Source: a bacterium (GTDB lineage: Bacteria; UBA10199; 2-02-FULL-44-16; JAAZCA01). From it: a stretch of DNA of 64,000 nt. Where the stretch lies: positions 480,001 to 544,000 of the forward strand of contig CAXXGI010000003.1 of assembly GCA_963674695.2 (NCBI GenBank), given 5' to 3'. The translations under genes were made by a program, and so were the position numbers. The notes under the pieces were generated by a model, which did not search any database, was not told the origin of the DNA, and was given only the letters and a program-made list of their open reading frames with translations. Shown piece after piece: positions 3,785-50,191 of this stretch; within the stretch, counting starts at the first letter, position 1; every line of letters begins with the position of its first letter.

Positions 3785-3786
3785 AT

Positions 3787-24130: not shown

Positions 24131-24255
24131 AGTACCTCTCCCGCGTTTCGCAGGAAAGGGCGGGCATCTCACCGTGGGGGTAAATTGAAATGCTGACGAG
24201 CGTGCCCGGTTCCCTTCCCACACATCAGAGATTAGCACGCCGTCAAGAATAACGC

Positions 24256-24755: not shown

Positions 24756-24809
24756 CTCGTTTTCGTATGCTCTCCACCTGTTCTTCTTTCTGTGTCATTG
24801 CCCCCCCCC

Positions 24810-25151: not shown

Positions 25152-25381
25152 TAAAGTATCATCACCTCTGCCGGATAAAGTATTGGTACACCGATCAAAC
25201 TTATATCAAGCAACGTACCCTCATAACCTACCGGACACCTAGCAACGTCTCTCAACCACCTCGCAACATCTTCGCGGTTTCCTTTCGAGGTCAGTATTGC
25301 TTTCGGCCTAAGCCCTCTTTCCAGTTCAAAATGCCTGCACGACTTAATTAAATCCTCGAGATTGTTTATTTCGAGAGACAT
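25151..25381 (-). CDS. Hypothetical protein
   Basis: Tightly coupled ORF. Confidence 0.5.
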   Translation of the reverse strand: MSLEINNLEDLIKSCRHFELERGLRPKAILTSKGNREDVARWLRDVARCPVGYEGTLLDISLIGVPILYPAEVMIL

Positions 25382-25858
25382 TCACTCCCCCTTTCGGATC
25401 GCTTCCAGTACGGCAGAGCAACATCCGCACAGCGCATTGTACTCATCGATTGTGAGTACAACGACGTTTCCTGCGCTGTTGTGTCCTGGATTTACGTCAT
25501 TGATAATAAGTCTGGTTTCTTCAGCCCACAACACTTCCACTTTCCTCATACACCGCTCCCTCTCTGCCGCTACACCACGACTCCACGCAAGCGAGCAATT
25601 CAACTCATAATCAGCAGCCCATCGTTTGAGATTTTTTGCCATTTCTTTATCCATCACTTCCATTTTCTGTACTTCTTTCATCAGCCGATCGATCTCCTCA
25701 CGCATCCGCTCCTCTGTCCTGCACATCTCGGCCAGGTATGGGCATGTTGATATGCAGTTGTTCGTTGGTTTATCCGTCGCTCCCTTACTCGTATTGCGGC
25801 GGCTATACTCAAACCCAGCCTGTGCTATCGTTTCGGCTAACGGCTTGTCACTATCCAT
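25382..25858 (-). CDS. Mosaic hypothetical protein
   Basis: Shares ATDKPTNNCISTCPYLAEMCRTEER with 26074-26364. Confidence 0.55.
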   Translation of the reverse strand: MDSDKPLAETIAQAGFEYSRRNTSKGATDKPTNNCISTCPYLAEMCRTEERMREEIDRLMKEVQKMEVMDKEMAKNLKRWAADYELNCSLAWSRGVAAERERCMRKVEVLWAEETRLIINDVNPGHNSAGNVVVLTIDEYNALCGCCSAVLEAIRKGE

Positions 25859-26064
25859 CGCTCCCCCCTTCTAATTCGATCCACGATCAGCTGCGCTTCG
25901 TTATCGGACGAACACAGCCCGAAGATGATCGAGCAGCACCGCTCACGCTCTTTGGCAGCTGCCTCTTTCGTTATCTTCTCTTCGTGTTCGCAGATACATA
26001 GCATCTGTTCATAATTCTCGTCGTTCATATAATCGGAACCGCATTTTGGGCATCTTCCATACAT
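25837..26064 (-). CDS. Mosaic hypothetical protein
   Basis: Shares ERERCCSIIFGLCSSDNEAQ with 26361-26576; GGAGG RBS. Confidence 0.55.
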   Translation of the reverse strand: MYGRCPKCGSDYMNDENYEQMLCICEHEEKITKEAAAKERERCCSIIFGLCSSDNEAQLIVDRIRRGERWIVTSR

Positions 26065-26073
26065 AACTACCTC

Positions 26074-26364
26074 CTATCGCTCGCGCTCGGCCTCCTTCTC
26101 TTTCAGCAGCCGATCGATCTCATCACGCAGCCGCTCCTCTGTCCTACACATCTCGGCCAGGTATGGGCATGTCGATATGCAGTTGTTCGTTGGTTTATCC
26201 GTCGCTCTCTGATTGTTTTCGATTGCTTCCGATGCGATGGCGCATAGTTTTTCTATAAGCCTTTCTGGATTTACCACAACATCCGTCAGAGGATTCCATG
26301 TATCGTCCGTTCCCCTATCTCCTATTGCCGCCATAATAGCTTCTCTGATTTCCTTATCCATCAC
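26074..26364 (-). CDS. Mosaic hypothetical protein
   Basis: Carries the duplicated module; coupled start. Confidence 0.55.
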   Translation of the reverse strand: MMDKEIREAIMAAIGDRGTDDTWNPLTDVVVNPERLIEKLCAIASEAIENNQRATDKPTNNCISTCPYLAEMCRTEERLRDEIDRLLKEKEAERER

Positions 26365-26576
26365 TCCCCCTTTCTGATTCTATCTACGATCCGTTGCGCC
26401 TCGTTGTCCGACGAACACAGCCCAAAGATGATCGAGCAGCACCGCTCACGCTCTGTTGCGACGGCATCACATATTGCCTCCAAGCAAAATGACGAAGACA
26501 GCATTTGTCCAGGCTGCACTTTATCCCCGTCGAGATAGTTATTCTCGAACCACTTTTTAAGCTCATCGTGTGTCAT
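26361..26576 (-). CDS. Mosaic hypothetical protein
   Basis: Carries the duplicated C-terminal module. Confidence 0.5.
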   Translation of the reverse strand: MTHDELKKWFENNYLDGDKVQPGQMLSSSFCLEAICDAVATERERCCSIIFGLCSSDNEAQRIVDRIRKGE

Positions 26577-26611
26577 TTCTTCATCTCCCTCTCCAGATCC
26601 TCCAACGCCCT

Positions 26612-26950
26612 TTACTTCTGCTCCGTTGGAAGACTGTGCTTCCACGGCATGAAGTCGGTAACGGTTTCGAGATTGACAAAAACATCACCAACTGGCTCAA
26701 CTTCAGATAGGGTTCCATCCTTGATGGCGTTCATAAACCTACCACTATCAGCTACCCACGATGCAGAGACGAGATGAAGAAAACTTCCGACCCTCGCCTT
26801 CACTTTACCAACAAAGTGATATGTAACCGTTCGGATGAAGAAAGAATTTCCAATCATTTCATCAAAGCATGAAAGTTCAAAGTCTGTGTCTTTCAATTGA
26901 GCCTTGATTGTTTCATACGTCTCGTCACTGATTACAATTGTCCTTGTCAT
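26612..26950 (-). CDS. Putative Sm/LSm-like beta-barrel protein
   Basis: IGNSFFIRTVTYHFVGKV...LHLVSASWVADSGRF...VFVN pattern resembles Sm1/Sm2 strands; AGGAG RBS. Confidence 0.5.
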   Translation of the reverse strand: MTRTIVISDETYETIKAQLKDTDFELSCFDEMIGNSFFIRTVTYHFVGKVKARVGSFLHLVSASWVADSGRFMNAIKDGTLSEVEPVGDVFVNLETVTDFMPWKHSLPTEQK

Positions 26951-26986
26951 TGTGTTCTCCTTTTTAGGTTTGTTTTACACCACCAA

Positions 26987-27199
26987 TTAACTCGACCTAG
27001 ACCTAGACCTAGACCTCGACCACGACCTCGACCACGACCTCGACCACGACCTCGACCTCGACCACGACCCCGACCACGACCCCGACCTCGACCACGACCC
27101 CGACCACGACCCCGACCTCGACCTCGACCCCGACCTCGACCTCGACCACGACCCCGGCCACGACCTCGACCCCAACCCTGTATAACTTATCACTATCAT
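26987..27199 (-). CDS. Ser-Arg/Trp/Gly dipeptide-repeat peptide
   Basis: About 30 hexamer repeats TCG-NGG; GAGGAG-like RBS; directly upstream of the Sm-like gene. Confidence 0.6.
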   Translation of the reverse strand: MIVISYTGLGSRSWPGSWSRSRSGSRSRSGSWSGSWSRSGSWSGSWSRSRSWSRSWSRSWSRSRSRSRSS

Positions 27200-27410
27200 G
27201 TCATCCTCACTCTCTCCTATACCTCATATCCTGCGCTGCGAAGTTCTTCGTCAAGTATTTGAACGACAGCACTGGTAGCTGGCCTGGCAAACCACTCCCG
27301 TCTTACTGCCAGAGCTGCCTCTGCAACCTTCTCCAGTTGCTCGATGCGCTTCGTCAGCTCCTGACCACTCCGCACCAGTACTTTTGTTTTCATACAATCC
27401 TCCCTTACAA

Positions 27411-27533
27411 CGACACTATCGGTGGCCGGTCATGAGTTTATATGGCTTCCGGTGGAGCATCTGGTTCGTCCCGGGCCTACTCCAGATTTTTCCTGCCCGC
27501 TCTTTGGATGTTTCACCCGCACCAACAGCGTCG
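27411..27533 (-). ncRNA. Multi-branched structured RNA candidate
   Basis: 14-bp closing stem with three G-U pairs on the minus strand only; internal ATCTGG/CCAGAT, GAGC/GCTC and CCGG/CCGG stems. Confidence 0.5.
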
Positions 27534-27542
27534 ATGAAAGAG

Positions 27543-27620
27543 GGCGGTGGCTCATCGGGCAAGACGAAAGCCTATGTGGGGTCCGTCAGTGAGCATCCCG
27601 ACCCCTGCACCGCACCGCCA
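27543..27620 (-). ncRNA. Three-way-junction RNA candidate, copy 2
   Basis: GGCGGTG/CACCGCC closing stem; GGGGTC/GACCCC and GGCTT/GAGCC arms. Confidence 0.5.
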
Positions 27621-27628
27621 ACTTTCGG

Positions 27629-27784
27629 TTACTTTGAAAGAGCAAAGTACAACACATAAAACCAGCCGAGAAACCCATGCAGTATAGCCCATCCGATTGA
27701 GTGGTTGACGCTATAACTGAGTATCATCCCCAACGCGCTACCCATTCCAATCCCAGTTGATATAGCCTGCGAGTTTGCTGACAT
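27629..27784 (-). CDS. Small membrane protein, 51 aa (not in the ORF track)
   Basis: MSANSQAISTGIGMGSALGMILSYSVNHSIGWAILHGFLGWFYVLYFALSK; AGGAG RBS. Confidence 0.65.
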   Translation of the reverse strand: MSANSQAISTGIGMGSALGMILSYSVNHSIGWAILHGFLGWFYVLYFALSK

Positions 27785-27808
27785 ATGCTCTCCTTTCCAT
27801 TAAAATTA

Positions 27809-27875
27809 TGGCGGTGTCTGGTTCCAAGGCCAGATTTGTGTCCGCAGGGTTGCGATCCCTGTAACGGCACCGCCA
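27809..27875 (-). ncRNA. tRNA-like three-way-junction RNA candidate, copy 1
   Basis: TGGCGGTG/CACCGCCA closing stem; CAGGG-ATCGCAA-CCCTG and TCTGG-N8-CCAGA arms. Confidence 0.5.
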
Positions 27876-27895
27876 ACTTTCGGTTTCAAAGAACG

Positions 27896-28192
27896 TCACT
27901 CGTCCTCCCTGCCTCCATCTTGTATTTCAATATATCCCAGGCTATTCACTGAAAAGTAAGCGCCGGTCGTTTCCTCTGGGAAAGTTTTCCGTATGTCACA
28001 AAAAAGTCTGTCTGCTGCACGTGCGGAAGAATCTACGGCGCAGGTGCAATCTTTAAACGACGGACGACGGCGATAAATACAAGTCCAGAATGGAGCTGCG
28101 TAATCTGATAACAGCTTTTCCTCAAAACGTGTCCGCGCTTTAAATATTAAAAAAAGCGACATTTGATGATCTGTCATTGAAAGTTGAATCAT
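27896..28192 (-). CDS. Hypothetical protein
   Basis: GGAGG RBS lies inside the repeated intergenic motif. Confidence 0.5.
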   Translation of the reverse strand: MIQLSMTDHQMSLFLIFKARTRFEEKLLSDYAAPFWTCIYRRRPSFKDCTCAVDSSARAADRLFCDIRKTFPEETTGAYFSVNSLGYIEIQDGGREDE

Positions 28193-28220
28193 CGCGCCCT
28201 CCCAATTTCGGTTTCAAAGA

Positions 28221-28727
28221 TCATTCCTTGAGCTTCTTCGCTCGGGCTTCGTGCCGCTCCATCTCTTTCCTTGCCTTATTTGCTTCACGGATATGATAGC
28301 CGACTGTCCAGGTGGCGTTTCTCATGGCACGTTTCCTTGAACCATACGCTCGGTCTTCTTCGTCCTTCACATGCGCCTCAATCAATTCCCTGCACTTTTT
28401 CGCCGCCTCTTCCTCTGTATCAAATATGCGGTCTGTAATGCCCCGATAGCCGCTTGAGTACTCGAACGTCTCTCCTTCAACAGTTTGGTGCAGCTTGACC
28501 TCCGTGATCGTTACCTGCTCTGGCTTGCACTCCCATTCGCGTTCAACCACAACCCCGCGTGGGCCTTCGTATCCACAGGCACAATATTCACAGGTCACGG
28601 CATAGCGATCTCCGTTGCCAAGTATGACGACCACAGCCTTCGCGCCGGAACATACTGGACACTCACGCGTTTTCTCCGTGTATTTGTTTTCCGCGATCCA
28701 TACTTTATCACCTACTATGTAGCTCAT
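28221..28727 (-). CDS. Hypothetical protein with DnaJ-like CxxCxG pairs
   Basis: CPVCSG and CEYC motifs. Confidence 0.55.
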   Translation of the reverse strand: MSYIVGDKVWIAENKYTEKTRECPVCSGAKAVVVILGNGDRYAVTCEYCACGYEGPRGVVVEREWECKPEQVTITEVKLHQTVEGETFEYSSGYRGITDRIFDTEEEAAKKCRELIEAHVKDEEDRAYGSRKRAMRNATWTVGYHIREANKARKEMERHEARAKKLKE

Positions 28728-29143
28728 GTTCCCTCCTTCACGATTCCAAACCGAACTGCATCCTCGACGGACATAGGTTCCTCGATCTCTTTTCCGTCTA
28801 TTTTGATTGACACTTCTGTCTTCCTAATGGGGCGGTGTTGATCCCATCTACAAAGAAGATTCGAACGGAAAAGTTCGGCAACTACCTTGCCATCAGACGC
28901 AACACCAACAAAATATCGTTTGTACCATATATCATCACCATCATAAGCTACTTCAATCAGCTCTCCAGGCTTATATGGTGGAGCGAGACATTCGATGGCG
29001 GCTTCTTCTGCCCATGTCGGCTCGCAGCCCTCATCGCCGGTGCTTATCGGGACGATACAGTAAACAAAACCATCCTCTCCTTGTTCGTCTGCCTCGACGA
29101 CTGTTGCTTTTACTAATACCTTATCACCGGCTTTATATTTCAT
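28724..29143 (-). CDS. Hypothetical protein (SH3/KOW-like repeats)
   Basis: MKYKAGDKV and YKPGELIEV; GGAGG RBS. Confidence 0.55.
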   Translation of the reverse strand: MKYKAGDKVLVKATVVEADEQGEDGFVYCIVPISTGDEGCEPTWAEEAAIECLAPPYKPGELIEVAYDGDDIWYKRYFVGVASDGKVVAELFRSNLLCRWDQHRPIRKTEVSIKIDGKEIEEPMSVEDAVRFGIVKEGT

Positions 29144-29166
29144 CTTACACCTCCCTTGATTAACAA

Positions 29167-30345
29167 CTATCCCTTAATGACCGCCAGCGGTGACAACTCA
29201 GCTACAATATCAACAAGGTCTTCTTGGTTCTTCATCACGGTGCCAACGTCTTTGTATGCTCCTGCGGCTTCATCCAAATCCTTCTTGCTTCTCATCCCAT
29301 GAATGATTCCCTGTTCGTCCATGCGTGCAAGTTCATCTTTCAAGCTCAAAGTCCTCCGTGCTGCCTTGCGACCCATCGCCCTACCAGCCCCGTGAGAACA
29401 CGACGTAAACGATTCACGGTTCCCCTTGCCACGGACGATATAGCTCTTGCTCCCCTGGCTGCCTGGAATGATCCCGATGGTATCCTCACGGGCAAGCGTA
29501 GCACCCTTGCGATGCACGACCACGTTCTTCCCGAAGTGGTTTTCAATGGCGGCATAGTTGTGGGCAATGTTGATTGGGTTTCCAATATCACTACAGCCTG
29601 TGACGCCTTTGAATATCTCGACGACCCTATCCATCATCAACGAACGATTCGCCAACGCGAAGTCTACACAGTATTGCATTTCTTCCATGTAATTTTCGCC
29701 CTGTAAGTGATCCAGAGGAAGAAAAGCAAGGTCCCATTCGCGTGGCACACAAGAAAGGTATTGTTCGTTTAATTTCTTAGCTATGGAATTATAATGGTCA
29801 GCCACCTTCTTTCCCAAGTTCCTGCTTCCAGAGTGAATCATGACCCAAACGTAACCACAATCATCACGCTGAATTTCAATAAAATGGTTTCCACCTCCAA
29901 GAGTCCCAAGCTGCCGAAGCGCAGATTCAAATTCATTGGAAGCTACCGTCCACCCCCAATATTCACCGTTGGATCGCTTAGGCATAAGGCTCTCGTCTTG
30001 CCTCTCACTATGCCGAGAGAACCCAACGGGAATGGCCCTTCGAACCCGCCCCATGATTTCCTTGAGCTGGTCGGTGGTGATGTCGTTCGCTTTCATCCCT
30101 GTCTGTACTGCTATCATACCACAACCAATATCCACCCCAACTGCGTTCGGCACTACGACGTTATGAGTCGCGAGCACTCCACCAATCGGCATTCCGTACC
30201 CCTGATGACAGTCTGGCAGTAATGCGATATGCTTGAACGCGAACGGAAGGTTAGCCAAATGCGTTGCCTGTTCAAGCGCGCCCTCCTCTATATCGTCAAG
30301 CCACGCCTTTATTGGAATGCGATTCCCGCTGATAACCTGTTTCAT
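29167..30345 (-). CDS. rtcB: RtcB family RNA ligase
   Basis: LPDCHQGYGMPIG, VGVDIGCG, LGTLGGGNHFIE, HSGSR, AHNYA, HRKGAT, SHGAGR, DEA..AYK. Confidence 0.92.
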   Translation of the reverse strand: MKQVISGNRIPIKAWLDDIEEGALEQATHLANLPFAFKHIALLPDCHQGYGMPIGGVLATHNVVVPNAVGVDIGCGMIAVQTGMKANDITTDQLKEIMGRVRRAIPVGFSRHSERQDESLMPKRSNGEYWGWTVASNEFESALRQLGTLGGGNHFIEIQRDDCGYVWVMIHSGSRNLGKKVADHYNSIAKKLNEQYLSCVPREWDLAFLPLDHLQGENYMEEMQYCVDFALANRSLMMDRVVEIFKGVTGCSDIGNPINIAHNYAAIENHFGKNVVVHRKGATLAREDTIGIIPGSQGSKSYIVRGKGNRESFTSCSHGAGRAMGRKAARRTLSLKDELARMDEQGIIHGMRSKKDLDEAAGAYKDVGTVMKNQEDLVDIVAELSPLAVIKG

Positions 30346-30504
30346 TGTCTTCCCCTTATCGTAATACGTTTGAACGTAACCCTGTCGAAGTAACCGAACA
30401 CCATCTTCCCGCCGTATGGCATGTAGACAACAACTTCCCACCTATTCTTGCGAACAATCTCAGCACGGATATTCCTGCTTGCGATTCTGAGGTGCACGAC
30501 CATA

Positions 30505-30720
30505 TCACCCACACCCATTCTTCCGAAACAGCTCCGAAACCGTCTTATCCATGCTCGCCAAGCTCATCGAATAATCGTTCATGTCGCCTTCAACACGTTT
30601 CCGAAACGCCGTCCGTTCAAACGCCATGGCCGTATGCACCGCGTCATGCACCGCCTTCCATTTCAAAAACGCTTTCCAACCCTCGACAGCTTCAACAAGC
30701 TCTTCGTCTGTTGGTCTCAT
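30505..30720 (-). CDS. Hypothetical protein
   Basis: GGGGAG RBS, co-oriented. Confidence 0.5.
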   Translation of the reverse strand: MRPTDEELVEAVEGWKAFLKWKAVHDAVHTAMAFERTAFRKRVEGDMNDYSMSLASMDKTVSELFRKNGCG

Positions 30721-30729
30721 CTCTCCCCC

Positions 30730-31077
30730 TTATATCCGTTCCCAAGTCTTCCCACGTTTCCTGACCACGGTGAGCGGCGATAACGGATGGTGCGAGTCAA
30801 ACAACTTTCGTTTCATCCTAAACGCCTCCGTTACAACCCCCTTGACCTCTATCACTTCAACGCTTCCATCCGGGCGGTACACCGTAAAATCCGGCGTGTA
30901 CGTCACGTTCCCTGGCAAGCGGTAGGCTGGTTTCACTTCCAAATACGCAATGCGCTCCATGCCGAGATCCCTTTTCAAGAGCTGATAATATTCCGCTTCT
31001 GCCTTGCTATCGAACCGCAGCCCGTCGATCTCCGTGGGCTTGGCGTTGTATTTGTGGCGGTTCCAATGCACGCTCAT
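30730..31077 (-). CDS. DUF1064-like PD-(D/E)xK nuclease
   Basis: KYNAKPTEIDGLRFDSKAEA, YTPDF, IEVKG. Confidence 0.8.
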   Translation of the reverse strand: MSVHWNRHKYNAKPTEIDGLRFDSKAEAEYYQLLKRDLGMERIAYLEVKPAYRLPGNVTYTPDFTVYRPDGSVEVIEVKGVVTEAFRMKRKLFDSHHPLSPLTVVRKRGKTWERI

Positions 31078-32177
31078 AATTTCACGCTCGTTGCTTTCTT
31101 CGTTTTTGCAGGAGTGTAGATTACCCATTCACCATTTTCATATTTTCGACAGCATGAACAATCTTTCAGCACGCCGACCTGGGAGTTTCCCCACAGCTCG
31201 CCGACCCGGGAGTTTCCCCGCAGCTCGCCGACCCGGGAGTTTTCCCGCAGCTCGCCGACCCGGGAGTTTTCCCACAGCACGCCGACCCGGGAGTTTCCCC
31301 GCAGCTCGCCGACCTGGGAGTTTTCCCGCAGCACGCCGACCCGGGAGTTTCCCCACAGCACGCCGACCTGGGAGTTTTCCCGCAGCTCGCCGACCCGGGA
31401 GTTTCCCCACAGCTCGCCGACCCGGGAGTTTTCCCACAGCACGCCGACCCGGGAGTTTTCCCACAGCACGCCGACCCGGGAGTTTTCCCACAGCACGCCG
31501 ACCCGGGAGTTTCCCCGCAGCTCGCCGACCTGGGAGTTTTCCCGCAGCACGCCGACCCGGGAGTTTCCCCACAGCACGCCGACCTGGGAGTTTTCCCGCA
31601 GCTCGCCGACCCGGGAGTTTCCCCACAGCTCGCCGACCCGGGAGTTTTCCCACAGCACGCCGACCCGGGAGTTTTCCCACAGCACGCCGACCCGGGAGTT
31701 TCCCCGCAGCTCGCCGACCTGGGAGTTTCCCCGCAGCTCGCCGACCTGGGAGTTTTCCCACAGCTCGCCGACCTGGGAGTTTTCCCACAGCTCGCCGACC
31801 CGGGAGTTTTGCATCGATCCAATTTTAGTATTGATTGCCACCCTGTAGCTTGCGTTTCTCACCGCTTCGATTTTTTGATCGACCAAAAATTTTTTCGAAA
31901 TAAACTCCTTCAATGCAGCTTCCGTTATGCGCCTCGCCTTCGTTGGATCATACCAAACAGGGACTTCATCGAGATCCGTGCGGAACTCCCATTTCGACAA
32001 ATCCATTTCAGACAAATTGCCATCTGGCGGTGTTAGCTCTACGGGGACAAAATCAGGCGGCAGCTTGTTGTCCCTGAGTTTATTCTCTCGCTTAATATCT
32101 TCGTGTGAATCTGAATCCCACGAAAACAAGCATTTTCTGTTTTTGTACGTTACAATTCCGCTAAAGAAATTACACAT
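31074..32177 (-). CDS. Protein with 24 nine-residue tandem repeats (beta-solenoid candidate)
   Basis: MCNFFSG...SHEDI N-terminal domain then NS[RQ]VG[EV]L[WR][EG] x24. Confidence 0.7.
   Translation of the reverse strand: MCNFFSGIVTYKNRKCLFSWDSDSHEDIKRENKLRDNKLPPDFVPVELTPPDGNLSEMDLSKWEFRTDLDEVPVWYDPTKARRITEAALKEFISKKFLVDQKIEAVRNASYRVAINTKIGSMQNSRVGELWENSQVGELWENSQVGELRGNSQVGELRGNSRVGVLWENSRVGVLWENSRVGELWGNSRVGELRENSQVGVLWGNSRVGVLRENSQVGELRGNSRVGVLWENSRVGVLWENSRVGVLWENSRVGELWGNSRVGELRENSQVGVLWGNSRVGVLRENSQVGELRGNSRVGVLWENSRVGELRENSRVGELRGNSRVGELWGNSQVGVLKDCSCCRKYENGEWVIYTPAKTKKATSVKL
31167..31809. repeat. 27-bp tandem repeat, about 24 copies
   Basis: Minus-strand unit AACTCCCRGGTCGGCGWGCTGYGGGRA. 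Confidence 0.95.
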
Positions 32178-32196
32178 AGTTCACGCTCCCTGTTTG

Positions 32197-32868
32197 TTAT
32201 TGTCTCGCATGAACGCGCCCGAGAATGTCGAAGACTGGCTGCTCAACATGATTGATTCTCGCACGCCGCTCCTTCTCTTTTTCGGGATCGCTTTTGCTTG
32301 TGAGGGCCTCACTCACTGATCCGGGCACGACCACACCGACAAGCCTATCCGCGGCTTCCCGGCAGTCTTGCGGCGCACACTTCCAAGCGCGGCTTTTCAC
32401 TCCCATGAGCGCCAGGCCCTTGACCTGATGTTTGTCGTGTGGGTTCCACTCGCTGCGGTTTTTGAACGTCGGTGTGTAGCCGACTTTTGAAAAATCGTCC
32501 TGCCATGCGGGGTAATCGTGAACGCAATTACTGCACGAGCACTTAAAAAGCGTGGTGTAACTGTGCCCGCTGTATTTCCGCACCGCTGACAGTGTTCCAG
32601 AGCCCTCACACAACGCGCATACCTCCGACTCCCTCGCGACCGTTGGGTCTGGATACGTTCGGGCGATTTCGAGCAAAGCCTTGATTGTCGGGAACCTGTC
32701 CGAGTTCGTCAGGACGTACTCGATCGTCCGTGTGAATTGGCTATCTGAGATACGAGGGTCAAGGGCGCGGTAGTAAACCGGCTCCATCTTCTCCACGCGG
32801 CTTTCGGCCAACCCAAACGCTGCCGCAACTACCTTGATTTGCTCTTTAAAATACCCGTATGACAGCAT
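32197..32868 (-). CDS. Replication accessory (helicase-loader-like) protein
   Basis: Directly after the initiator; RFPTIKAL motif, CALCEGSG...CSC zinc site. Confidence 0.55.
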   Translation of the reverse strand: MLSYGYFKEQIKVVAAAFGLAESRVEKMEPVYYRALDPRISDSQFTRTIEYVLTNSDRFPTIKALLEIARTYPDPTVARESEVCALCEGSGTLSAVRKYSGHSYTTLFKCSCSNCVHDYPAWQDDFSKVGYTPTFKNRSEWNPHDKHQVKGLALMGVKSRAWKCAPQDCREAADRLVGVVVPGSVSEALTSKSDPEKEKERRARINHVEQPVFDILGRVHARQ

Positions 32869-33654
32869 CTACGCCTCCAATGGGATAACCTTGCCGTGCT
32901 CGTCGAAAATGGGATTCCCCTTCTCGTCGGTCTTCCACTTTGGCTTTGGCACCTTGCTGCGATGCTTTTGCAAAAAAGCATTCACCTCTCCGGGGACAAA
33001 CGCCACTGGGAAGCCCTCCTCCTTTGCCTTGCCGCCCTTCGAAAAGAAAAACGCGCATAACTCAGGCCACTGCTCTTTCGGCACCGCCGCCGCTATTTGC
33101 TGGCCGATCTTTCCAGCCATCCCCCACCACTGCTTCGGAGTGTGGTAGTCCTCGCCAAAAGCCCGCTTGTACTCGTGGCAAAAAACAGATCCGAAATTAT
33201 TTGGGGACGGGGGGGGATCTTTGACCTTCTCCTTCCTTCCTTCCTTCCTTCCTTTCCTTTCCTTCCTTCCTTCCTTCCCCCCGGAGTGTTCCGGGAGTGT
33301 TCCCGGAATGTTCCCGGAATGTTCCGACATAACTGGAATCATTGATTTTTTCGGATGGCTGATCGATTGGTGGTCGTCGAAGTCGTGACATTGGATATAT
33401 TTCTTTCCGTCGACCTCGTACCTGTGGATAAGTTGCGTTTTTTCGAGTTCGTCGAGGAGTTTTTCAACCACCTCGCCGGTCGCCGAGTAGTACCTCGGAC
33501 ATCGTGCCCCGATCTCCATCACATCATCGACAAGACGCCCCTCATCGTCTGCGTGGTTCCACAGCGAAATATTGAGGAATGCCGCGTCAACAGAGCACCT
33601 AAGCTGTTTTCCGCTTGAGAAATAATCAGGTTTCACGGTTCGTATCCTCGCCAT
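32869..33654 (-). CDS. Phage replication initiator with internal origin
   Basis: MARIRTVKPDYF...LWNHADDEGR N-terminal domain; internal iterons. Confidence 0.75.
   Translation of the reverse strand: MARIRTVKPDYFSSGKQLRCSVDAAFLNISLWNHADDEGRLVDDVMEIGARCPRYYSATGEVVEKLLDELEKTQLIHRYEVDGKKYIQCHDFDDHQSISHPKKSMIPVMSEHSGNIPGTLPEHSGGKEGRKERKGRKEGRKEKVKDPPPSPNNFGSVFCHEYKRAFGEDYHTPKQWWGMAGKIGQQIAAAVPKEQWPELCAFFFSKGGKAKEEGFPVAFVPGEVNAFLQKHRSKVPKPKWKTDEKGNPIFDEHGKVIPLEA
33231..33325. promoter_or_regulatory. Putative replication origin: (CCTT)n tract plus four 11-bp iterons
   Basis: SGGARTGTTCC at 33282, 33293, 33304 and 33315. Confidence 0.65.
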
Positions 33655-33950
33655 TAGAAAAGCTCCCCCTGAGAATCACGCTCTTTTGTGCACCACTCGA
33701 TCGACATCCTACCGCTCACCCTGCACATGCGTTTGTGGCATCGATCTCCGCTCGGAACCGATCCCTCTTTCCTCAAATCGTCGATCCTCGCGCTGATCGT
33801 TCCCGGAAACCATCCGAACACCTCCGACAATTCCCTGATTGTGCTCGGGCGTCTTACCAGATGCCAATAGATCGCTTCTCTCTGGTTCCTCGCCGTTCCG
33901 TCGTTCAATATTTCATGCCGTGCCATCAGGCTTGTTGGTTGCACTCGCAT
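33654..33950 (-). CDS. Winged-HTH protein
   Basis: STIRELSEVFGWFPGTISARIDDLRKEG. Confidence 0.65.
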   Translation of the reverse strand: MRVQPTSLMARHEILNDGTARNQREAIYWHLVRRPSTIRELSEVFGWFPGTISARIDDLRKEGSVPSGDRCHKRMCRVSGRMSIEWCTKERDSQGELF

Positions 33951-34197
33951 ATTCCCTCCAATACTTTGCAGCGAGCTCCTTTAATTCGTCTCGATAAGCC
34001 CCAATGAAACGATGGACACGTTCATGACACCGACGGCAGAGAGGAACGCAGCTCTCATCGTCTCCTCGTTTAGAAAGCCCTCGATCATTGTAAACGTGAT
34101 GGGGATCATTGCCGTGCCATGATGATTGCGCCCCGCATCGACAACAGGGTTGCTCTCTGATCCAACGCAAATAAGGTTCATTTTTCACCTTCATCAA
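33913..34197 (-). CDS. DUF968/HNH-like nuclease
   Basis: YLRWIREQPCCRCG...DPHH...VPLCRRCH. Confidence 0.75.
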   Translation of the reverse strand: MMKVKNEPYLRWIREQPCCRCGAQSSWHGNDPHHVYNDRGLSKRGDDESCVPLCRRCHERVHRFIGAYRDELKELAAKYWREYASATNKPDGTA

Positions 34198-34540
34198 GTT
34201 TGTCCTTTACCCAACCGATCATCGACTCGACTTTGTCTCGATAAAAACGCTCGAAATCTCCCTCGCCACCAAGCTGTTTCCACCAGACAAACAAAACACC
34301 TCGCAACCGCTGCGCCGGCGTTTTCTCGCTGCGAAAGTCTTTCGGTGGCTCGCTTGGGATTTCAATCTGCGTTGACGATTCCGGGCAAAACAGCATCCAC
34401 CCGAAAGACTGGTTCATGCGCATGAGCGTTGCGCCCATTTCTGGTGAGATTTCTTGCGTATGGAACGTGACCTTCAGCGAGCGGTCCTTTAGCGTCTTGT
34501 GACCTTCGAGAAGGGCCCCAACCTTTAGAACGTCTTCCAT
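34178..34540 (-). CDS. Phage hypothetical protein
   Basis: KTPAQRLRGVLFVWWKQ; GGGGAG RBS. Confidence 0.6.
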   Translation of the reverse strand: MEDVLKVGALLEGHKTLKDRSLKVTFHTQEISPEMGATLMRMNQSFGWMLFCPESSTQIEIPSEPPKDFRSEKTPAQRLRGVLFVWWKQLGGEGDFERFYRDKVESMIGWVKDKLDEGEK

Positions 34541-34556
34541 GACTCCCCCAAGAGAG

Positions 34557-34602
34557 AGGAGGCGGGGTGGCGAACCACCCCGGCCCTTTCGGGCGACCTC
34601 CT
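34557..34602 (-). ncRNA. Compact three-way-junction RNA element
   Basis: AGGAGG/CCTCCT closes GCCC-GAAA-GGGC and CGGGGTGG-TTCG-CCACCCCG. Confidence 0.55.
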
Positions 34603-34615
34603 GAACCCTAAAAGA

Positions 34616-35728
34616 TTAGATCGGCACATCCGCTTCATTTTCTTCCTTCGGCGGCTTGCTTCCATTTCCACCACCGGGCAACCCGAGGTGTTCAATTTTA
34701 ACGCGCTCAATTGCCGCCTCAATATCCTCCGGTCGCTTCCTCTCGATTGCAGTTTTTGAGCTTGTACCGAAAAGCTGCTCCAAAACTTCAATCCGTCGTT
34801 TTTTGGTATCGCCGGAAGTGCCCGTCAGGCCCGCCTTTGTGAGTACAGCATCGAACTCTTCAAGTGCTATGTCGCGCCGCCGAAACATTCGCTGCAATGA
34901 TCCATCACCATTATCATCGAACATATCTTCGGACGTGCTCGTGGTGTTCAGCCCGTAATGCTCACCTCCAAGGTTAAGGCATTCGATGTGTGGCAGATAG
35001 TCATCGAACTTCGGGTTGTCGAATGACTTTGAGTCGAGTATTCCGAACCGCTCTTTGACCACGTTGCAGCGACGAACGTAGGTCCCATCACCCTCTGAAT
35101 AGACCTTCTCCATCTCGCAGAGGATTGACGGCTCATACCCGGTGTCACCCTCTGCACGCATCTTCGTTCCGCTCTTCACGCTCGTCTTTTTTGTCCTGCC
35201 GTTTCGCTCTTGTTCTTCTGTGGTGTAGATCGCGCCTTCCCTGCCGCACATTATGATGTGGAGCTTGGAATTGACGAAACGATCGCGGTATTGCGTGCGC
35301 CACTCCTTCTTGATTGGCTTCCAGTCCCACAACTCGATGTAGTTCTGTTTCCGCTTCTTCATGTAGGCATCGGTGAACTCGTCCCATACGTTCGTGATCG
35401 AATCGATAATCAGAATGGAGCATTCCTTTTCCGCTTCATCCATGACCGCGACCAAGTCCTTGAGCGCCGATCCGTTGAACGTCACAAGCTCGATTCCCGC
35501 CGTCTTGAACTTCGGCAGAATAAAACTCGACCCCGTTTCTGTGTCGAAGAACGCAACGGGCTTGTCGCTCTTGATGAACTTATGCAGTCCGAGAGCCACC
35601 CCTGATGCCGTCCATGTTTTTCCGGACCCCGTATCTCCGTAGAGCCCCATTTTTAGATATGCCATTGTGTTTTGTGCTGGTTTTAAAAGTCCCACAACTG
35701 CCTCCTCTCCCGTTCTTGACACTCCCAA
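34616..35728 (-). CDS. Sak4-like AAA+ ATPase (recombination)
   Basis: GDTGSGKT, FFDTETGS, LIIDSIT. Confidence 0.75.
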   Translation of the reverse strand: MGVSRTGEEAVVGLLKPAQNTMAYLKMGLYGDTGSGKTWTASGVALGLHKFIKSDKPVAFFDTETGSSFILPKFKTAGIELVTFNGSALKDLVAVMDEAEKECSILIIDSITNVWDEFTDAYMKKRKQNYIELWDWKPIKKEWRTQYRDRFVNSKLHIIMCGREGAIYTTEEQERNGRTKKTSVKSGTKMRAEGDTGYEPSILCEMEKVYSEGDGTYVRRCNVVKERFGILDSKSFDNPKFDDYLPHIECLNLGGEHYGLNTTSTSEDMFDDNGDGSLQRMFRRRDIALEEFDAVLTKAGLTGTSGDTKKRRIEVLEQLFGTSSKTAIERKRPEDIEAAIERVKIEHLGLPGGGNGSKPPKEENEADVPI

Positions 35729-35932
35729 TCAATGAGAGTATCCAGAACGTGCTTGCGTGATCTTGTGCAATAGAGTCCGCACTCTGAACTGTTCTTCGAG
35801 ATACGATATTTCGTCCTCGAAAAACGCTTGCTCAAGATCCGGGTCCGGGTCGACCATACGGTCGGCCCGTTCTGCATCTACGAACGTCTTCCACTCTCCG
35901 TGCTGCCTGGTCCCCCACGCCATGAGCTTCAT
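35729..35932 (-). CDS. Hypothetical protein
   Basis: GGAGG RBS, coupled ORF. Confidence 0.5.
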   Translation of the reverse strand: MKLMAWGTRQHGEWKTFVDAERADRMVDPDPDLEQAFFEDEISYLEEQFRVRTLLHKITQARSGYSH

Positions 35933-36141
35933 GATTCACCTCCTTTCTCTAAAATATTTTTCGCCTTGTTTATTACAAGCAGTGCAAGAAAGATTGCGTT
36001 GGTAACGATCTTCGGATCTCCCCTCAACGACGGCCGTAGCAGGACTTTTGTTAGCGACTCACATTCCACGACCAACTCGCGGATAATCGCGTCCCTCTCC
36101 GCATCGACATCGGCGATCATTTTTAGTGCGTGCTCGGTCAT
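35929..36141 (-). CDS. Hypothetical protein
   Basis: MTEHALK...; start follows the upstream stop. Confidence 0.5.
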   Translation of the reverse strand: MTEHALKMIADVDAERDAIIRELVVECESLTKVLLRPSLRGDPKIVTNAIFLALLVINKAKNILEKGGES

Positions 36142-36145
36142 GGGT

Positions 36146-36448
36146 TCACCCCGCCTTTCTTTGCCACCGTTTATCGTTGCAGGTCGTGCAGATGAGGACG
36201 TAAACGAGGCATCCCGTTTCGGGATCGTACTGACGTTCCATGTCTTCTTTGAGAAGCCGCAGCCCGCAAGCTGCACACTCCGCGGTGTACTCTTCGCAGT
36301 CAGGGCAGAGAGGCTTTCCCTTGGAATCCACGGCCTCTTCCCCTGGGCGGCAGTCGATTCCACCCCCACAATGAGAGCAGCGCATATCCTCGTCCCGATC
36401 TTCCGGTGAGGCCAATTTGTATGCGTCGTATCCTGGCAGGCGTTCCAT
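36146..36448 (-). CDS. Multi-CxxC zinc-finger protein
   Basis: CSHC, CPDC, CAAC and CTTC motifs. Confidence 0.6.
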   Translation of the reverse strand: MERLPGYDAYKLASPEDRDEDMRCSHCGGGIDCRPGEEAVDSKGKPLCPDCEEYTAECAACGLRLLKEDMERQYDPETGCLVYVLICTTCNDKRWQRKAG

Positions 36449-36451
36449 CGT

Positions 36452-36823
36452 TCACCCCTTTCCGCCGGCAATGGCGATCAACGTAGGTCGTTGAGGTTCA
36501 ACGCGACGTTTCTTTGCGTCGTGAAAAATGCGCTGCTTGATGAGAGTGTTTTGCTTCGATTGATACCCGCTCGCGCGCGGCCCCTTGACAATCGGGGCAA
36601 ACGGATTGCGCGAGCGAAACACGCACCCCGAATGCTGTGCTCGACGCCACGCCACGGTTGCCGATAGCTCGTAGGCGACATGCCAACACCGGGAGTGCTG
36701 CCAGTTGATGTCGATAACTTGGTACAGTGCGGATTGTGCGCGCCTGACTCGGCGCTCGATCGGGCCACTGCGATAAATCGTGACTTCCTGGCGCACTTTG
36801 AGCGCCTTGACCACAGAGAGCAT
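36452..36823 (-). CDS. First early gene, basic hypothetical protein
   Basis: GAGGAGG RBS; directly downstream of the sigma54-type promoter. Confidence 0.55.
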   Translation of the reverse strand: MLSVVKALKVRQEVTIYRSGPIERRVRRAQSALYQVIDINWQHSRCWHVAYELSATVAWRRAQHSGCVFRSRNPFAPIVKGPRASGYQSKQNTLIKQRIFHDAKKRRVEPQRPTLIAIAGGKG

Positions 36824-36893
36824 AGATCCTCCTCATGCTCTCCCCCATGCGAGCATCCGGGTTGCGCCGACGGGCGGCGTGTGCTAACCCCGA

Positions 36894-36911
36894 TTGCATT
36901 GATCGTGCCAA
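36894..36911 (-). promoter_or_regulatory. Sigma54-type promoter of the phage early operon
   Basis: TTGGCACGATCAATGCAA (GG-N10-GC). Confidence 0.65.
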
Positions 36912-37061
36912 TTTTTGGGCCTTATTTATCAGGTACTTGCGTGACTGGTGGCGCTGCGGATTGGAGCGGTTTTTGTCCAACTTCAAACTCAAGATATGGA
37001 CGGGCAAACTCAAGACGGATTTTGTACACGCTTGATTATCAAGAGGTTTTGATGTAAGTAG

Positions 37062-37089
37062 AGCGGTGTTTTTATATCTTATACGACCC
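37062..37089 (-). other. attR: dif-like site with degenerate XerD arm
   Basis: Minus strand GGGTCGTATAA-GATATA-AAAACACCGCT. Confidence 0.8.
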
Positions 37090-37145
37090 TGTGTCGATAT
37101 CACGAGAGGGCGCGCTTTCAGCCCACATCCACGGAGTGACCGCAC

Positions 37146-39227
37146 ATGTATCGCAGAGCCAACATCGCGCCGGTTTCCGCCCAACAGCAATGCCCTGTAT
37201 CGATCGAGACGAGCCCTGCCGTCGATTACAAGGTCTCGATCCTGCAGCAGAGCGTCACCGCTCTCAAGACGATGCAGCGAACGGATGGCTACTGGTGGTT
37301 TGCGCTCGAGGCCAATGAATCGATCGGCTCGGAGTTCATCTTTCTGATGCACTATCTGGATGAGGTTGACGAATCGATCATGGCTGGCATCGCGCAGCGC
37401 ATTCGGGATATGCAGCGCAGCGATGGCAGCTGGACCCTCTATTATGACGGCCCCGGGCATCTCTCCGCATCGATCGAGTGCTATTTCGCCTTAAAACTCG
37501 CGGGATTCACCGAATCCGACCCGATGATGGCCAAGGCGCGTGACTTCATCAGGGCCAGTGGCGGCATTGAGCGAGCCACAGTCTTCACAAAGATCCACTT
37601 GGCCATGTTTGGGCTGGTGCCCTGGAGTGCCGCGCCCGCCATGCCGGTCGAGTTCATGCTCCTGCCCAGCTGGTTTCCGGTGAACATCTATAGCTTCTCG
37701 AGCTGGGCGCGCGCGACCATCGTGCCGCTGTTGGTCTTCATGTCGGAGCAAAAGACAAAAAAACTGAACAAGAACATTACGTTGGATGAAATCTTTCTGA
37801 ACCGGCCTGATGAGCGCGATTATGCCTTTCACACGGGAAAATCCTTTTTTTCCTGGGAGTCTTGGTTCATTCGGATCGATAAATACTTGAAATGGTACGA
37901 GAAACTCCCTTGGAAGCCGTTGCGTAACTATGCGAAAAAGAAGTGTTTATCCTGGACCTGGGAGCATGTCTCCAAGACGGAGGATATCTATCCGGCCATG
38001 GCCTATGCGGCGTTTGCAGCAAAGGCGGCGGGGTTTGAAAACAGCGATCCGCGCATTCGGCAGCCCTTTGAGGGGCTCAAGATGTTCCAGCAGTATTATG
38101 CGACGGAAGAGCTCGTGCCGATGCCGGACGAGATCCGCGATGACGGGCAGACGCGCCCTTCCGAGCTACGCGCGATGGGCATCGACCCCCGGGTCTCTGA
38201 TGGCGGGTCACGGGTTACGGGTCACGGGTTACGGATCCACCAACAGTGCTGCATCTCGCCGCTCTGGGATACGCCCTGGACGCTCACCGCACTCCTCGAT
38301 GCGGGCACTCCGGCGGATGATCCGGATCTGTTGCGCTCCGGGCGGTGGTTGCTGGCCAAGCAGATTACGGACGTCCGTGGCGATTGGGCGGTGAAAAATC
38401 CGAACGGAGTTCCCGGCGGATGGCCGTTCGAGTTCGAGAACGACTATTTTCCCGACATAGACGATTCGATCCAGATATTATCCGTCCTTCATCGGTTGGC
38501 GCTTTCCGAGGCGGAGACCGAGGGACCCTGCAAGCTGGGGCTCGACTGGGTGCTGTCGATGCAGAACGACGATGGCGGTTGGGGGGCGTTCGACAAGAAT
38601 CAGACGCAGGAGCTGGTCAACCGGATCCCCTTCTCCGACCATAAGGCCTGCCTCGATCCCTCATCCCCCGATATCGCCGGGCGCGTTCTGGAGCTGCTGG
38701 CGGCCTACGGTTTCGCGCAGGATCATCCTGCCGTGGCCCAGGCCCTGAGCTATATCTGGCGGCATCAGGAGTCATTCGGTGGCTGGTTTGCGCGTTGGGG
38801 CATCAACTATATCTATGGAACCTGGTGCGTGCTGACCGGTCTTTCCGCCATCGGGTGGGATATGGACGATCCGCGTGTGCTCAAGGCGATCGGCTGGCTG
38901 CGTTCGGTCCAGAATGCAGATGGCGGGTTTGGCGAGTCGGCCGAGTCGTATGATCGCGGAACCTATGTCCCGCTGGGCGTGAGTACGGCGTCACAGACCG
39001 CCTGGGGGCTGATGGGGCTCGTGGCTGCCGGGCGTGCCGATGCCGGCTGTGCGCGGCGTGCCGCTGAATATCTGCTGAACACGCGCAATCGCGCCGGCGC
39101 CTGGGATGAACAGCACTACACCGGGACGGGATTTCCCGGCCACTTCTACATCCGCTATCACGGTTACCGCCACTTCTTCCCGGTGATCGCCCTGGCCCGC
39201 TATCAACGCGCCGTCGGTGTGCTCTAG
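37146..39227 (+). CDS. shc: Squalene-hopene cyclase
   Basis: PDIDDS (DxDD), QW repeats (QRSDGSW, QNDDGGW, QNADGGF), GTGFPGHFYIRY. Confidence 0.93.
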   Translation: MYRRANIAPVSAQQQCPVSIETSPAVDYKVSILQQSVTALKTMQRTDGYWWFALEANESIGSEFIFLMHYLDEVDESIMAGIAQRIRDMQRSDGSWTLYYDGPGHLSASIECYFALKLAGFTESDPMMAKARDFIRASGGIERATVFTKIHLAMFGLVPWSAAPAMPVEFMLLPSWFPVNIYSFSSWARATIVPLLVFMSEQKTKKLNKNITLDEIFLNRPDERDYAFHTGKSFFSWESWFIRIDKYLKWYEKLPWKPLRNYAKKKCLSWTWEHVSKTEDIYPAMAYAAFAAKAAGFENSDPRIRQPFEGLKMFQQYYATEELVPMPDEIRDDGQTRPSELRAMGIDPRVSDGGSRVTGHGLRIHQQCCISPLWDTPWTLTALLDAGTPADDPDLLRSGRWLLAKQITDVRGDWAVKNPNGVPGGWPFEFENDYFPDIDDSIQILSVLHRLALSEAETEGPCKLGLDWVLSMQNDDGGWGAFDKNQTQELVNRIPFSDHKACLDPSSPDIAGRVLELLAAYGFAQDHPAVAQALSYIWRHQESFGGWFARWGINYIYGTWCVLTGLSAIGWDMDDPRVLKAIGWLRSVQNADGGFGESAESYDRGTYVPLGVSTASQTAWGLMGLVAAGRADAGCARRAAEYLLNTRNRAGAWDEQHYTGTGFPGHFYIRYHGYRHFFPVIALARYQRAVGVL

Positions 39228-39250
39228 CATTTCAAGGGTGTCATTCATAA

Positions 39251-39351
39251 GGTGTCATTCCCGCCCCCGATTCAATCATTCGAGGGCAGGCTCCAGCGGG
39301 AATCTCGCTTTGTACGGCACATCGAGATCCCCGCCTGCGCGGGGATGACAA
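39251..39351. repeat. Composite REP element (long variant)
   Basis: GTCATTCCCGCCCCCGATTCAATCATTCGAGGGCAGGCTCCAGCGGGAATCTCG plus an inverted REP; also at about 41917 and 54273. Confidence 0.85.
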
Positions 39352-39397
39352 AAACAAGGGTTTGTCATCAACCGGAGAACTCTGTCGATTATTCTCT

Positions 39398-39823
39398 TTA
39401 TGCCTTTTCCGCCTTCTTCTTAAAATGCTCGAGCATCGCTGGCACACTCTTCTGCATCAGGCCATCGATGATAGACGATGGAATCCAGCCCGAGAGTTCC
39501 ACCTCGGTTGAAAAGGTCGCCTCCGTCTTTTTCGCCCCCTTCTTTTCGAGTTTCCAGGAACCGATGTTCGATTCCATCATCTCCCCTTCGACGAGCGTCC
39601 AGGTGACGGCCGATGGTTTTTTCATCTTGAAGTCGAGCGTGTAGTTGATCTTCGTCATCATGTTCATGACGAAGGCGACGCGCGCGCCGGTCTTGGTGCT
39701 CTTGAGCACCTCGGCTTCTTCGATCTCGGGGAGAAATTTCGGGTACATGGCAAAATCGCTCACGACGGAGAAGACGTGGTCGATCGGGGCATCGATGATG
39801 GTGGTGGCGCTGACGTTCGGCAT
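39398..39823 (-). CDS. SRPBCC/START (Coq10/RatA-like) protein
   Basis: IDAPIDHVFSVVSDFAMYPKFLP, GSWKL. Confidence 0.85.
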   Translation of the reverse strand: MPNVSATTIIDAPIDHVFSVVSDFAMYPKFLPEIEEAEVLKSTKTGARVAFVMNMMTKINYTLDFKMKKPSAVTWTLVEGEMMESNIGSWKLEKKGAKKTEATFSTEVELSGWIPSSIIDGLMQKSVPAMLEHFKKKAEKA

Positions 39824-39912
39824 GGTGTTCCTTTCGATAACGAAGTCTTGGTTTTTGTCATCCCCGCGTTCGCGGGGATGACACCCTATAAATATAATAA
39901 TGAGGGCATACC

Positions 39913-40917
39913 CTAGGACGTTTGTTCACTCCCCATGTGGAGGTAAATCTTTCCTTCCGGTGTTGTATAGTATGGTTTTCGCTTAAAGTCATGCGTGGCT
40001 TCGATGAACCGAACGGTTCCCGTTTCGGAGCGCATGACGACCGAGTGCGTCGAAGCGCCGCCGCCGTAAAATCGCACGCCTTTGAGAAACGCTCCGTCTG
40101 TGACGCCGGTGGCGGCGAACATCACGTTTCCGGCGGCGAGATCCTCCAGACCGTAGATGCGTTCCAGGTCTTCAATGCCCATGTGGCGGGCGCGTTCTTT
40201 TTCCTGTTCGTTGCGCCACGCGAGCATCCCCTGCATGTCGCCGCCCAGGCAGCGCAGCGCGGCAGCTGCGAGCACGCCCTCGGGCGCGCCTCCGCTGCCC
40301 AGCAGGATGTCGACGCCGGAGTCGGGCTGGCAGGCGGCGATCGCGGCGGAGACATCGCCGTCGTCGATGAGGCGTATGCGTGCGCCGGCCTGGCGCACCT
40401 CCTTGATAAGATTCTCATGCCGCGGCCGGTTGAGGATGATGGCGGTGAGTTCGCGTACTTCGCATCGCTTGGCCTCCGCGACCGCGACGAGGTTCTGTGT
40501 CGGCGTTCGCTTCAGGTCGATCACGCCGCGGCAGTCGGGGCCGACGGCGATCTTCCACATATAGGTATCGGGTGCATGCAGGAAGTTCCCCCGGTCGGCC
40601 ATGGCGATCACCGCCAGCGAATTCTCCTTGCCGGTCGCACAGACGTTTGTCCCCTCGAGCGGGTCGAGCGCGATATCAATCTCGGGGCCTGTGCCATCGC
40701 CGACCTCCTCGCCGATATAGAGCATGGGCGCTTCGTCGCGTTCCCCCTCACCGATGACCACGCGCCCCTGAATGGACATCGAGCCCAGCGAGGTGCGCAT
40801 GGCATCCACGGCGGCCTGATCGGCGGCATCGGAGAGGCCCCGACCCATCAGGCGTGCTGCGGCAAGGGCAGCGGCCTCCGTGACTCGAACCATCTCCAGC
40901 GCCATATTCTTTTCCAT
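39913..40917 (-). CDS. glpX: Class II fructose-1,6-bisphosphatase
   Basis: VVIGEGERDEAPMLYIGE, DPLEGT, GGAPEGV, FAATGVTDG. Confidence 0.95.
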   Translation of the reverse strand: MEKNMALEMVRVTEAAALAAARLMGRGLSDAADQAAVDAMRTSLGSMSIQGRVVIGEGERDEAPMLYIGEEVGDGTGPEIDIALDPLEGTNVCATGKENSLAVIAMADRGNFLHAPDTYMWKIAVGPDCRGVIDLKRTPTQNLVAVAEAKRCEVRELTAIILNRPRHENLIKEVRQAGARIRLIDDGDVSAAIAACQPDSGVDILLGSGGAPEGVLAAAALRCLGGDMQGMLAWRNEQEKERARHMGIEDLERIYGLEDLAAGNVMFAATGVTDGAFLKGVRFYGGGASTHSVVMRSETGTVRFIEATHDFKRKPYYTTPEGKIYLHMGSEQTS

Positions 40918-50173: not shown

Positions 50174-50191
50174 TTGCAAGGAGGGTGCCAA
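50174..50191 (-). promoter_or_regulatory. Sigma54 promoter
   Basis: TTGGCACCCTCCTTGCAA, consensus match. Confidence 0.8.

Follow-up and report, generated by a model that had tools for sequence, protein, structure and literature searches.

A putative sigma-54/IHF promoter at the head of the early genes of a tailed prophage inserted in a bacterial dif site

Promoters of the sigma-54 class stay silent until an enhancer-binding ATPase acts on them, often through looping of the DNA by IHF. Pu of the TOL plasmid, nifH and glnHp2 are classical promoters in which sigma-54, IHF and an enhancer work together. Temperate tailed phages are normally described with an integrase and a repressor switch. In the case of vibriophage VP882 and its VqmA protein, the phage itself encodes a receptor and an antirepressor. 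P2 Cox and 186 Apl are small phage proteins whose direct-repeat binding sites are found at attP as well as at the early promoter.

A separate class of elements, known as IMEX, uses the XerC and XerD recombinases of the host to insert at dif, the dimer-resolution site of the chromosome; described members are TLCphi, the gonococcal genetic island, dif-type inoviruses and double-jelly-roll phages (PMC6744903, PMC12715192). The phages among them are filamentous or tailless, whereas the phage described here is tailed, 35 kb long, and encodes an HK97-type capsid and a terminase. We found no tailed-phage IMEX in the literature searched.

We analyzed a 64,000-nucleotide stretch of a bacterial genome (hereafter the window; 480-544 kb of contig C3). 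The window contains a prophage of 35 kb, at the right end of which lies a non-coding control region of roughly 250 bp (36824-37072) that holds the 150 bp studied here (Table 1). Like Pu, nifH and glnHp2, this region has (i) a -24 GG and a -12 GC at 10-nt spacing; (ii) an IHF-like site between the promoter and the upstream sites; (iii) candidate upstream sites at -100 to -160; and (iv) an activator that would be supplied in trans. Unlike them, it stands at the head of the whole early array of a temperate tailed phage with no cI/cro switch detected beside the promoter, its -12 element is ATGC rather than TTGC, and both the activator and its sites are candidates only. On balance we favor the reading that a sigma-54/IHF promoter heads the early array of a dif-inserted prophage, that it stays silent until a host enhancer-binding protein (bEBP) acts, and that integration proceeds through Xer, and we hold this reading to be probable, with appreciable room for doubt.

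Table 1. Coordinates of features in the window; negative values are positions relative to the predicted transcription start.
Feature	Position	Strand	Remarks
Host rpoH-like sigma factor	1034-1954	+	left flank of dif
attL, complete dif-like 28-mer	2053-2080		includes 15-bp repeat at 2064-2078
Prophage body	2079-37072	- (nearly all genes)	35 kb: replication genes, RtcB, terminase, portal-size ORF, capsid, tail, endolysin
Long hairpin and U run	2099-2185	-	-63 kcal/mol, z -5.47
Third exact copy of AAACTCAAGA	2225-2234	+	opposite side of attachment core; ~-350 in circular phage form
Small ribbon-helix-helix (RHH) protein	2236-2433	-	last phage gene; NikA-like, E 1.2e-5, below Pfam cut-off
VanY-type endolysin	3422-3883
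Tail-fibre-like proteins, including one gene	4002-5648
SU10/Mx8-type major capsid protein	18024-18971		<=36.5% identity to named phage capsids
Small and large terminase	22303-24343		then portal-sized ORF
DUF1064 resolvase-like protein and RtcB	29167-30441
HNH/DUF968 protein and replication initiator	32869-33654
AAA_24 / Sak4-like ATPase	34616-35728	-	early gene; used as query for relatives
Second ORF, 100 aa	36146-36448	-	Cys-rich, zinc-ribbon-like
First ORF after promoter, 123 aa	36452-36823	-	ORFan; GAGGAGGA-N3-ATG; doubtful coding status
Sigma-54-type promoter (putative)	36894-36911	-	TGGCACG-N4-ATGCA; GG 36909/36908, GC 36897/36896; predicted start ~36884
IHF-like site	36927-36939		TATCAGGTACTTG; 12/13 to WATCAANNNNTTR; 16 nt upstream of TGGCAC; centred near -49
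Direct repeat copy 1	36984-36994	+	CAAACTCAAGA; -100 to -110
Direct repeat copy 2	37005-37015	+	CAAACTCAAGA; -121 to -131; 21 bp from copy 1
Perfect palindrome CTTGAT-T-ATCAAG	37031-37043		CTTGATTATCAAG; -147 to -159
attR core, 15-bp copy	37073-37087		dif central region and one arm; other arm not dif-like
Host squalene-hopene cyclase (shc)	37146-39227	+	right flank of dif

The prophage is inserted exactly at the host's dif site, with the rpoH-like gene on one side and shc on the other, a context that the initial annotation had missed. A 15-bp direct repeat flanks it on both sides, and the attL 28-mer consists of two inverted arms around a 6-bp centre, resembling the Vibrio dif pattern of PMC12715192. 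Allowing up to 3 mismatches, a 21-mer of attL found matches in 31 of 41 genomes up to the level of the class, our own genome included, with a single match per genome in all but two of the 31; the reversed control gave 3 matches. At eleven dif loci of relatives, shc adjoined the site in 10 and the rpoH-like gene lay on the other side in 7 (both within 3 kb in 6). The site is therefore empty in these relatives, and the 35 kb found here is an exact insertion. Cumulative GC skew of contig C3 reaches its maximum at about 480-610 kb, a range that includes the window. Farther out, the flanks consist of host genes, with an amidohydrolase on the left and an SRPBCC protein, GlpX and LipA on the right.

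The host encodes both Xer recombinases, with XerD at 357 bits (TIGR02225) and XerC at 337 bits (TIGR02224), each above its NCBIfam cut-off. Since the attachment site copies the central region of dif together with one arm, host XerC/XerD are the likely recombinases, and they likely integrate the prophage with no recombinase from the phage. The arm missing from attR is presumably the XerD arm, by analogy with E. coli dif. As in described IMEX, no recombinase of its own was detected here, the insertion is at dif, and the phage attP copies part of dif only, comparable to the 17-bp one-armed attP given in PMC12715192. Unlike TLCphi, the genome holds no XafT (DUF3653, PF12375; no match anywhere) and there is no RstR-like repressor, and we infer the use of Xer; gonococcal islands, too, are described as lacking XafT (PMC6744903).

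Of the sequencing runs listed for 31000-39500, all were DNA runs, three in number and from one study, and none was an RNA run. The right junction is bridged by contigs of these three runs, which are possibly the source of the assembly and so do not count as independent support. Among the contig matches listed for these runs over 33000-40000 there was no excised form, although contigs can miss rare forms. The 15-bp core also gave 36 matches in viral contigs, which we read as chance, none of them having dif-like flanks or a sigma-54 motif, and no sigma-54 motif tied to dif was found at the dif loci of relatives. The host intergenic spacers on either side of the prophage carry palindromic REP-like elements of the GATTCCCGCG...CGCGGGAATGACA type (943-1021, 1978-2021, 39314-39357 and 39847-39890). 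Contig depth at 39084-39551 was tens of times that of neighbouring bins in all three runs, which indicates that the REP-like element is multi-copy.

The putative promoter points into the unidirectional gene array of the prophage, which opens with small ORFans and runs from the replication genes to those for structure and lysis. The first ORF has a codon score near 0, compared with 0.15-0.40 for the phage training genes, and a low language-model recognition score; it matched no homolog but itself and had no atlas match. It could be a gene that evolves fast, or else belong to a leader. Behind it, ORFs 35929-36471 and 36146-36448 (both minus strand) overlap in different frames, each being codon-positive over part of its length, which could reflect a frameshift or overlapping genes. 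At the far end, the long hairpin directly before the attachment core is probably the terminator of the long phage transcription unit. Neither PHROGs nor NCBIfam gave a match for the RHH protein or the small ORFs.

Several features of the phage body are recorded here in their own right. The RtcB RNA ligase (29167-30441, minus strand) is full-length (Pfam E 7e-113), and the scan of the phage ORFs detected neither RtcR nor RtcA. A 27-nt unit is repeated in tandem about 23 times or more at 31032-31925, within a 367-aa phage ORF (31074-32177), and encodes a 9-residue protein repeat. Repeats of 12 and 18 nt (CTCGACCACGAC-like) form an array at 26955-27202, where there is no clear minus-strand gene. 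Two direct repeat pairs, 25674-25785/26099-26210 (95%) and 25852-25965/26355-26468 (85%), indicate a local duplication of small phage genes.

We searched the prophage for the usual lysogeny genes by placing all genomic matches of the relevant families. In six-frame translation, the prophage held none of the 5 matches to tyrosine recombinases (PF00589), none of the 4 to serine recombinases (PF00239) and not the single match to rve (PF00665), and no recombinase appeared among the 69 ORFs scanned with Pfam. It likewise held none of the 20 HTH_3 matches and not the single S24 match, and no cI/cro-type gene was detected. We conclude that this appears to be a tailed prophage with neither an integrase nor a repressor switch. 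Many phage ORFs have no family assignment, so a repressor or recombinase of an unrecognised kind is possible.

The initial annotation had proposed, from the DNA alone, a sigma-54 promoter with an IHF site and enhancer-like repeats; the promoter and the IHF site gained support from our analysis, and the enhancer did not. The promoter motif reads TTGGCACGATCAATGCAA on the minus strand, equivalent to plus-strand positions 36894-36911, and a gap of 70 nt separates its end from the ATG at 36823. Set against TGGCAC-N5-TTGC, TGGCACGATCAATGCA agrees at 9 of 10 core positions, with an A in place of the first T of TTGC; TTGC itself is found in 39 of the 53 in-phase host motifs. Within the window, TGGCAC-N6-TGC occurs 5 times versus 0.65 expected, a count that none of 100 shuffles reached. 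Across the genome, TGGCAC-N5-TTGC has 39 matches versus 4 at each of three wrong spacings, and the variant of the phage, TGGCAC-N5-ATGC, has 14 versus 4-5, which amounts to a 3- to 10-fold excess of the in-phase motif over its out-of-phase controls. From the second comparison it follows that about two thirds of ATGC-type matches are functional before any context is considered. As to context, the motif at the head of the one-strand phage array is the sole intergenic match with at most one mismatch in the prophage, the others (4746 and 28892) lying inside ORFs. We therefore regard it as very probably a real sigma-54 promoter. The host has rpoN (PF04552, 213.8 bits, C3:673270-673746).

Two of the five window matches are consensus TGGCAC-N5-TTGCA motifs (50176-50190 and 59716-59730, minus strand) that lie directly upstream of two giant host ORFs (2705 and 1761 aa); an IHF-like site is present 23 nt upstream of the first motif. 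A BLAST search of both prophage ends against the host genome revealed no captured host promoter, counts of promoter-like and terminator-like elements in 22000-36900 did not rise above the level of shuffles, and the window contains no Rfam family.

The IHF-like site is present as described in the initial annotation, one mismatch from consensus. Taken alone, such a match is at chance level, with 38 one-mismatch matches to WATCAANNNNTTR in the window versus 32.9 expected, and it is the position of the site that carries weight. Genome-wide, 11 of the 53 in-phase motifs (the phage one included) have an IHF-like site 14-27 nt upstream of TGGCAC, versus none of 54 off-phase controls, only one of which has such a site at any position; the other 14-nt bins out to 140 nt upstream of the in-phase motifs hold 0-5 sites each. 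Exact IHF consensus sites, of which the whole genome has 63, occur 4 times in the 100 nt preceding the 39 strict promoters versus 0.073 expected. The phage site has the same orientation as those of three host promoters with sites at 14-16 nt, and 36894-36939 is the sole prophage locus that combines a sigma-54 motif with an IHF-like site. Because the site falls in the host-typical bin, it lends independent support to the view that the phage copies the sigma-54/IHF promoter architecture of its host, and we consider the combined reading of promoter plus IHF site highly likely. Six host genes belong to the HU/IHF family (PF00216), within which HU and IHF are not told apart. As an observation on the organism at large, about one fifth of its sigma-54 motifs have an IHF-consensus site 14-27 nt upstream of TGGCAC, and the off-phase controls have none.

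How such a promoter would work can be outlined as follows. RNA polymerase with sigma-54 would occupy it as a closed complex; IHF would bend the DNA, and an activated host bEBP bound upstream would open the promoter and start the early operon. The claim that the phage encodes no GAFTGA-type activator held up, in that none of the 14 genomic matches to PF00158 lies in the prophage interval. Ten of these score above 200 bits and represent about 10 strong bEBPs of the host. With no activator ATPase of phage origin, the early operon would be off by default in a lysogen, and without the host signal the prophage would stay silent and need no repressor. This default-off lysogeny is plausible, and it is consistent with the lack of HTH_3 and S24 matches in the prophage. 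Integration at dif would be carried out by host XerC/XerD. The proposed lytic trigger resembles that of VP882 in being a signalling protein and not RecA-mediated cleavage; unlike in VP882, no receptor or antirepressor is encoded here, and the switch would be the type of promoter itself.

What binds upstream of the promoter is the point on which the strongest alternative turns. Both copies of the direct repeat, 21 bp apart, and the perfect palindrome are present as first annotated and are non-random. The exact word AAACTCAAGA occurs 22 times on both strands of the 3.03-Mb genome; all three copies in the window (2225, 36985 and 37006) are no more than about 150 bp from a prophage end, a clustering far beyond what chance would give. 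The palindrome, which occurs once in the genome, has the TCAAG core in common with the repeats. Relative to the start at 36884, the attachment core lies at -189 to -203, beyond the repeats and the palindrome. We regard these repeats and the palindrome, on the strength of their distribution, as real phage cis elements that bracket attP. Their binder could be a host bEBP, the phage RHH protein or an accessory factor of recombination.

An enhancer role for the repeats and palindrome is plausible, as their distance from the start is the usual one for enhancers; its assertion in the initial annotation did not find support. Nothing comparable, whether word, pair or palindrome, was found upstream of the host's own sigma-54 promoters, which leaves these sites without a link to any host activator regulon. 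A third copy of the repeat lies at the other end of the prophage. Repeats at both ends fit sites that flank the attachment site at least as well as they fit an enhancer. In this alternative, the promoter is real, and the repeats and palindrome, arranged around the attachment core, are bound by a phage protein, for which the RHH protein is the best candidate; they could serve as an operator or in recombination directionality or an accessory role. We consider it a serious contender that falls somewhat short of even chances. It draws on the exact copies at both prophage ends, which bracket the 15-bp core in the circular form, on the absence of similar sites at host promoters, on the 21-bp spacing, which places the two right-hand copies on the same helix face, and on the end of the RHH gene only 2 bp from the left copy. 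The same left copy, which lies between that gene and the stable hairpin at 2099-2185, also overlaps a small terminator-like hairpin, a possible reason for its presence that speaks against this alternative, as does the enhancer-typical placement at -100 to -159. Furthermore, the RHH assignment is below the Pfam cut-off, and the protein is a candidate binder of the repeats whose binding is predicted. As with P2 Cox and 186 Apl, there are short same-face direct repeats near the early promoter and the core, and a gene for a small DNA-binding protein beside attP; unlike in those phages, the candidate is RHH-like and has no sequence relationship to them.

A bolder version of the favored sigma-54/IHF reading, in which the tailed phage borrows both lysogeny functions from its host, namely insertion by XerC/XerD and sigma-54 silence in place of a repressor, seems unlikely to us as a whole. 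Were both borrowed, the incoming genome would be transcriptionally mute and would lysogenise by default. The lytic cycle would be entered solely when a particular host enhancer-binding ATPase is active, making the decision a matter of the host's signalling state. In the integrated form, moreover, the promoter is parted from the third repeat copy and from the RHH gene, so regulation could differ between the circular and the integrated phage.

Relatives of the phage were collected by the AAA_24 gene and comprised 5 viral, 12 metagenome and 2 genome loci, with 40-58% identity over full-length matches; one short fragment reached 74% over 76 residues. All are distant, having in common the AAA_24 gene plus one or two others. 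None of these loci has a sigma-54 motif upstream of its early genes. A one-mismatch match in two of the loci collected (L065 and L066) was rejected, as it lies inside a tandem repeat of a 342-aa ORF and on the opposite strand. At the equivalent end, the best viral relative (L002) carries a tyrosine integrase together with two divergent HTH_3 genes; L073, a prophage from another genome within the class, has a divergent HTH pair. At the DNA level, 35700-37140 found no match in 60 related genomes, nor 35700-37100 in the phage collection. The lysogeny module thus appears to differ between this phage and its relatives. IMEX likewise have integrase-bearing relatives that are set apart mainly by this module, int-type and dif-type tailless phages being the described case (PMC12715192).

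The -24/-12 match might also be a chance or non-productive sigma-54 site, with an unrecognised housekeeping-type promoter driving the early genes and the stretch being arm DNA of the attachment site. Chance alone would account for about 4-5 of the 14 ATGC-type matches genome-wide, and relatives use cI/cro switches. The tail-fibre-like gene contains another TGGCAC-N5-ATGC match (4732-4746, minus strand), which has no IHF-like site upstream and is probably chance or a non-promoter binding site. Our scan of 36300-37300 revealed no sigma-70-like promoter, which is weak evidence because the host's housekeeping promoters may follow a consensus of their own. Against this explanation stand the IHF-like site in the host-typical bin (0 of 54 control motifs), the intergenic position in the correct orientation at the head of a 35-kb one-strand array, and the lack of a cI/cro-like gene, and we judge it improbable.

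Still less probable is a decayed prophage from which an integrase-cI-cro module was deleted, leaving a promoter that now serves the adjacent ORFan(s) and not a lytic program: the integrase and HTH genes of L002 and L073 at the equivalent end, the lack of an excised or circular form in the three DNA runs (whose contigs can miss rare forms) and the atypical composition of the first ORF would suit it, but the insertion is exact, with its 15-bp dif repeat and intact flanks, repeat copies survive on both sides of the core, the replication, packaging, capsid, tail and lysis genes are open, and the deletion would have had to spare the core precisely.

Both the sigma-54 promoter type and IMEX integration are known; what would be new is that the two meet in a temperate tailed phage in which neither integrase nor repressor was detected, a combination for which we found no precedent in the literature searched. 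The positional rule for IHF at the sigma-54 motifs of this uncultured lineage is useful in its own right. If XerC/XerD insert the phage, the use of dif would extend from filamentous and tailless to tailed phages. If the sigma-54 promoter is the master early promoter, the prophage would owe its silence to promoter chemistry and its induction to a host signalling ATPase, not to SOS-driven cleavage of a repressor.
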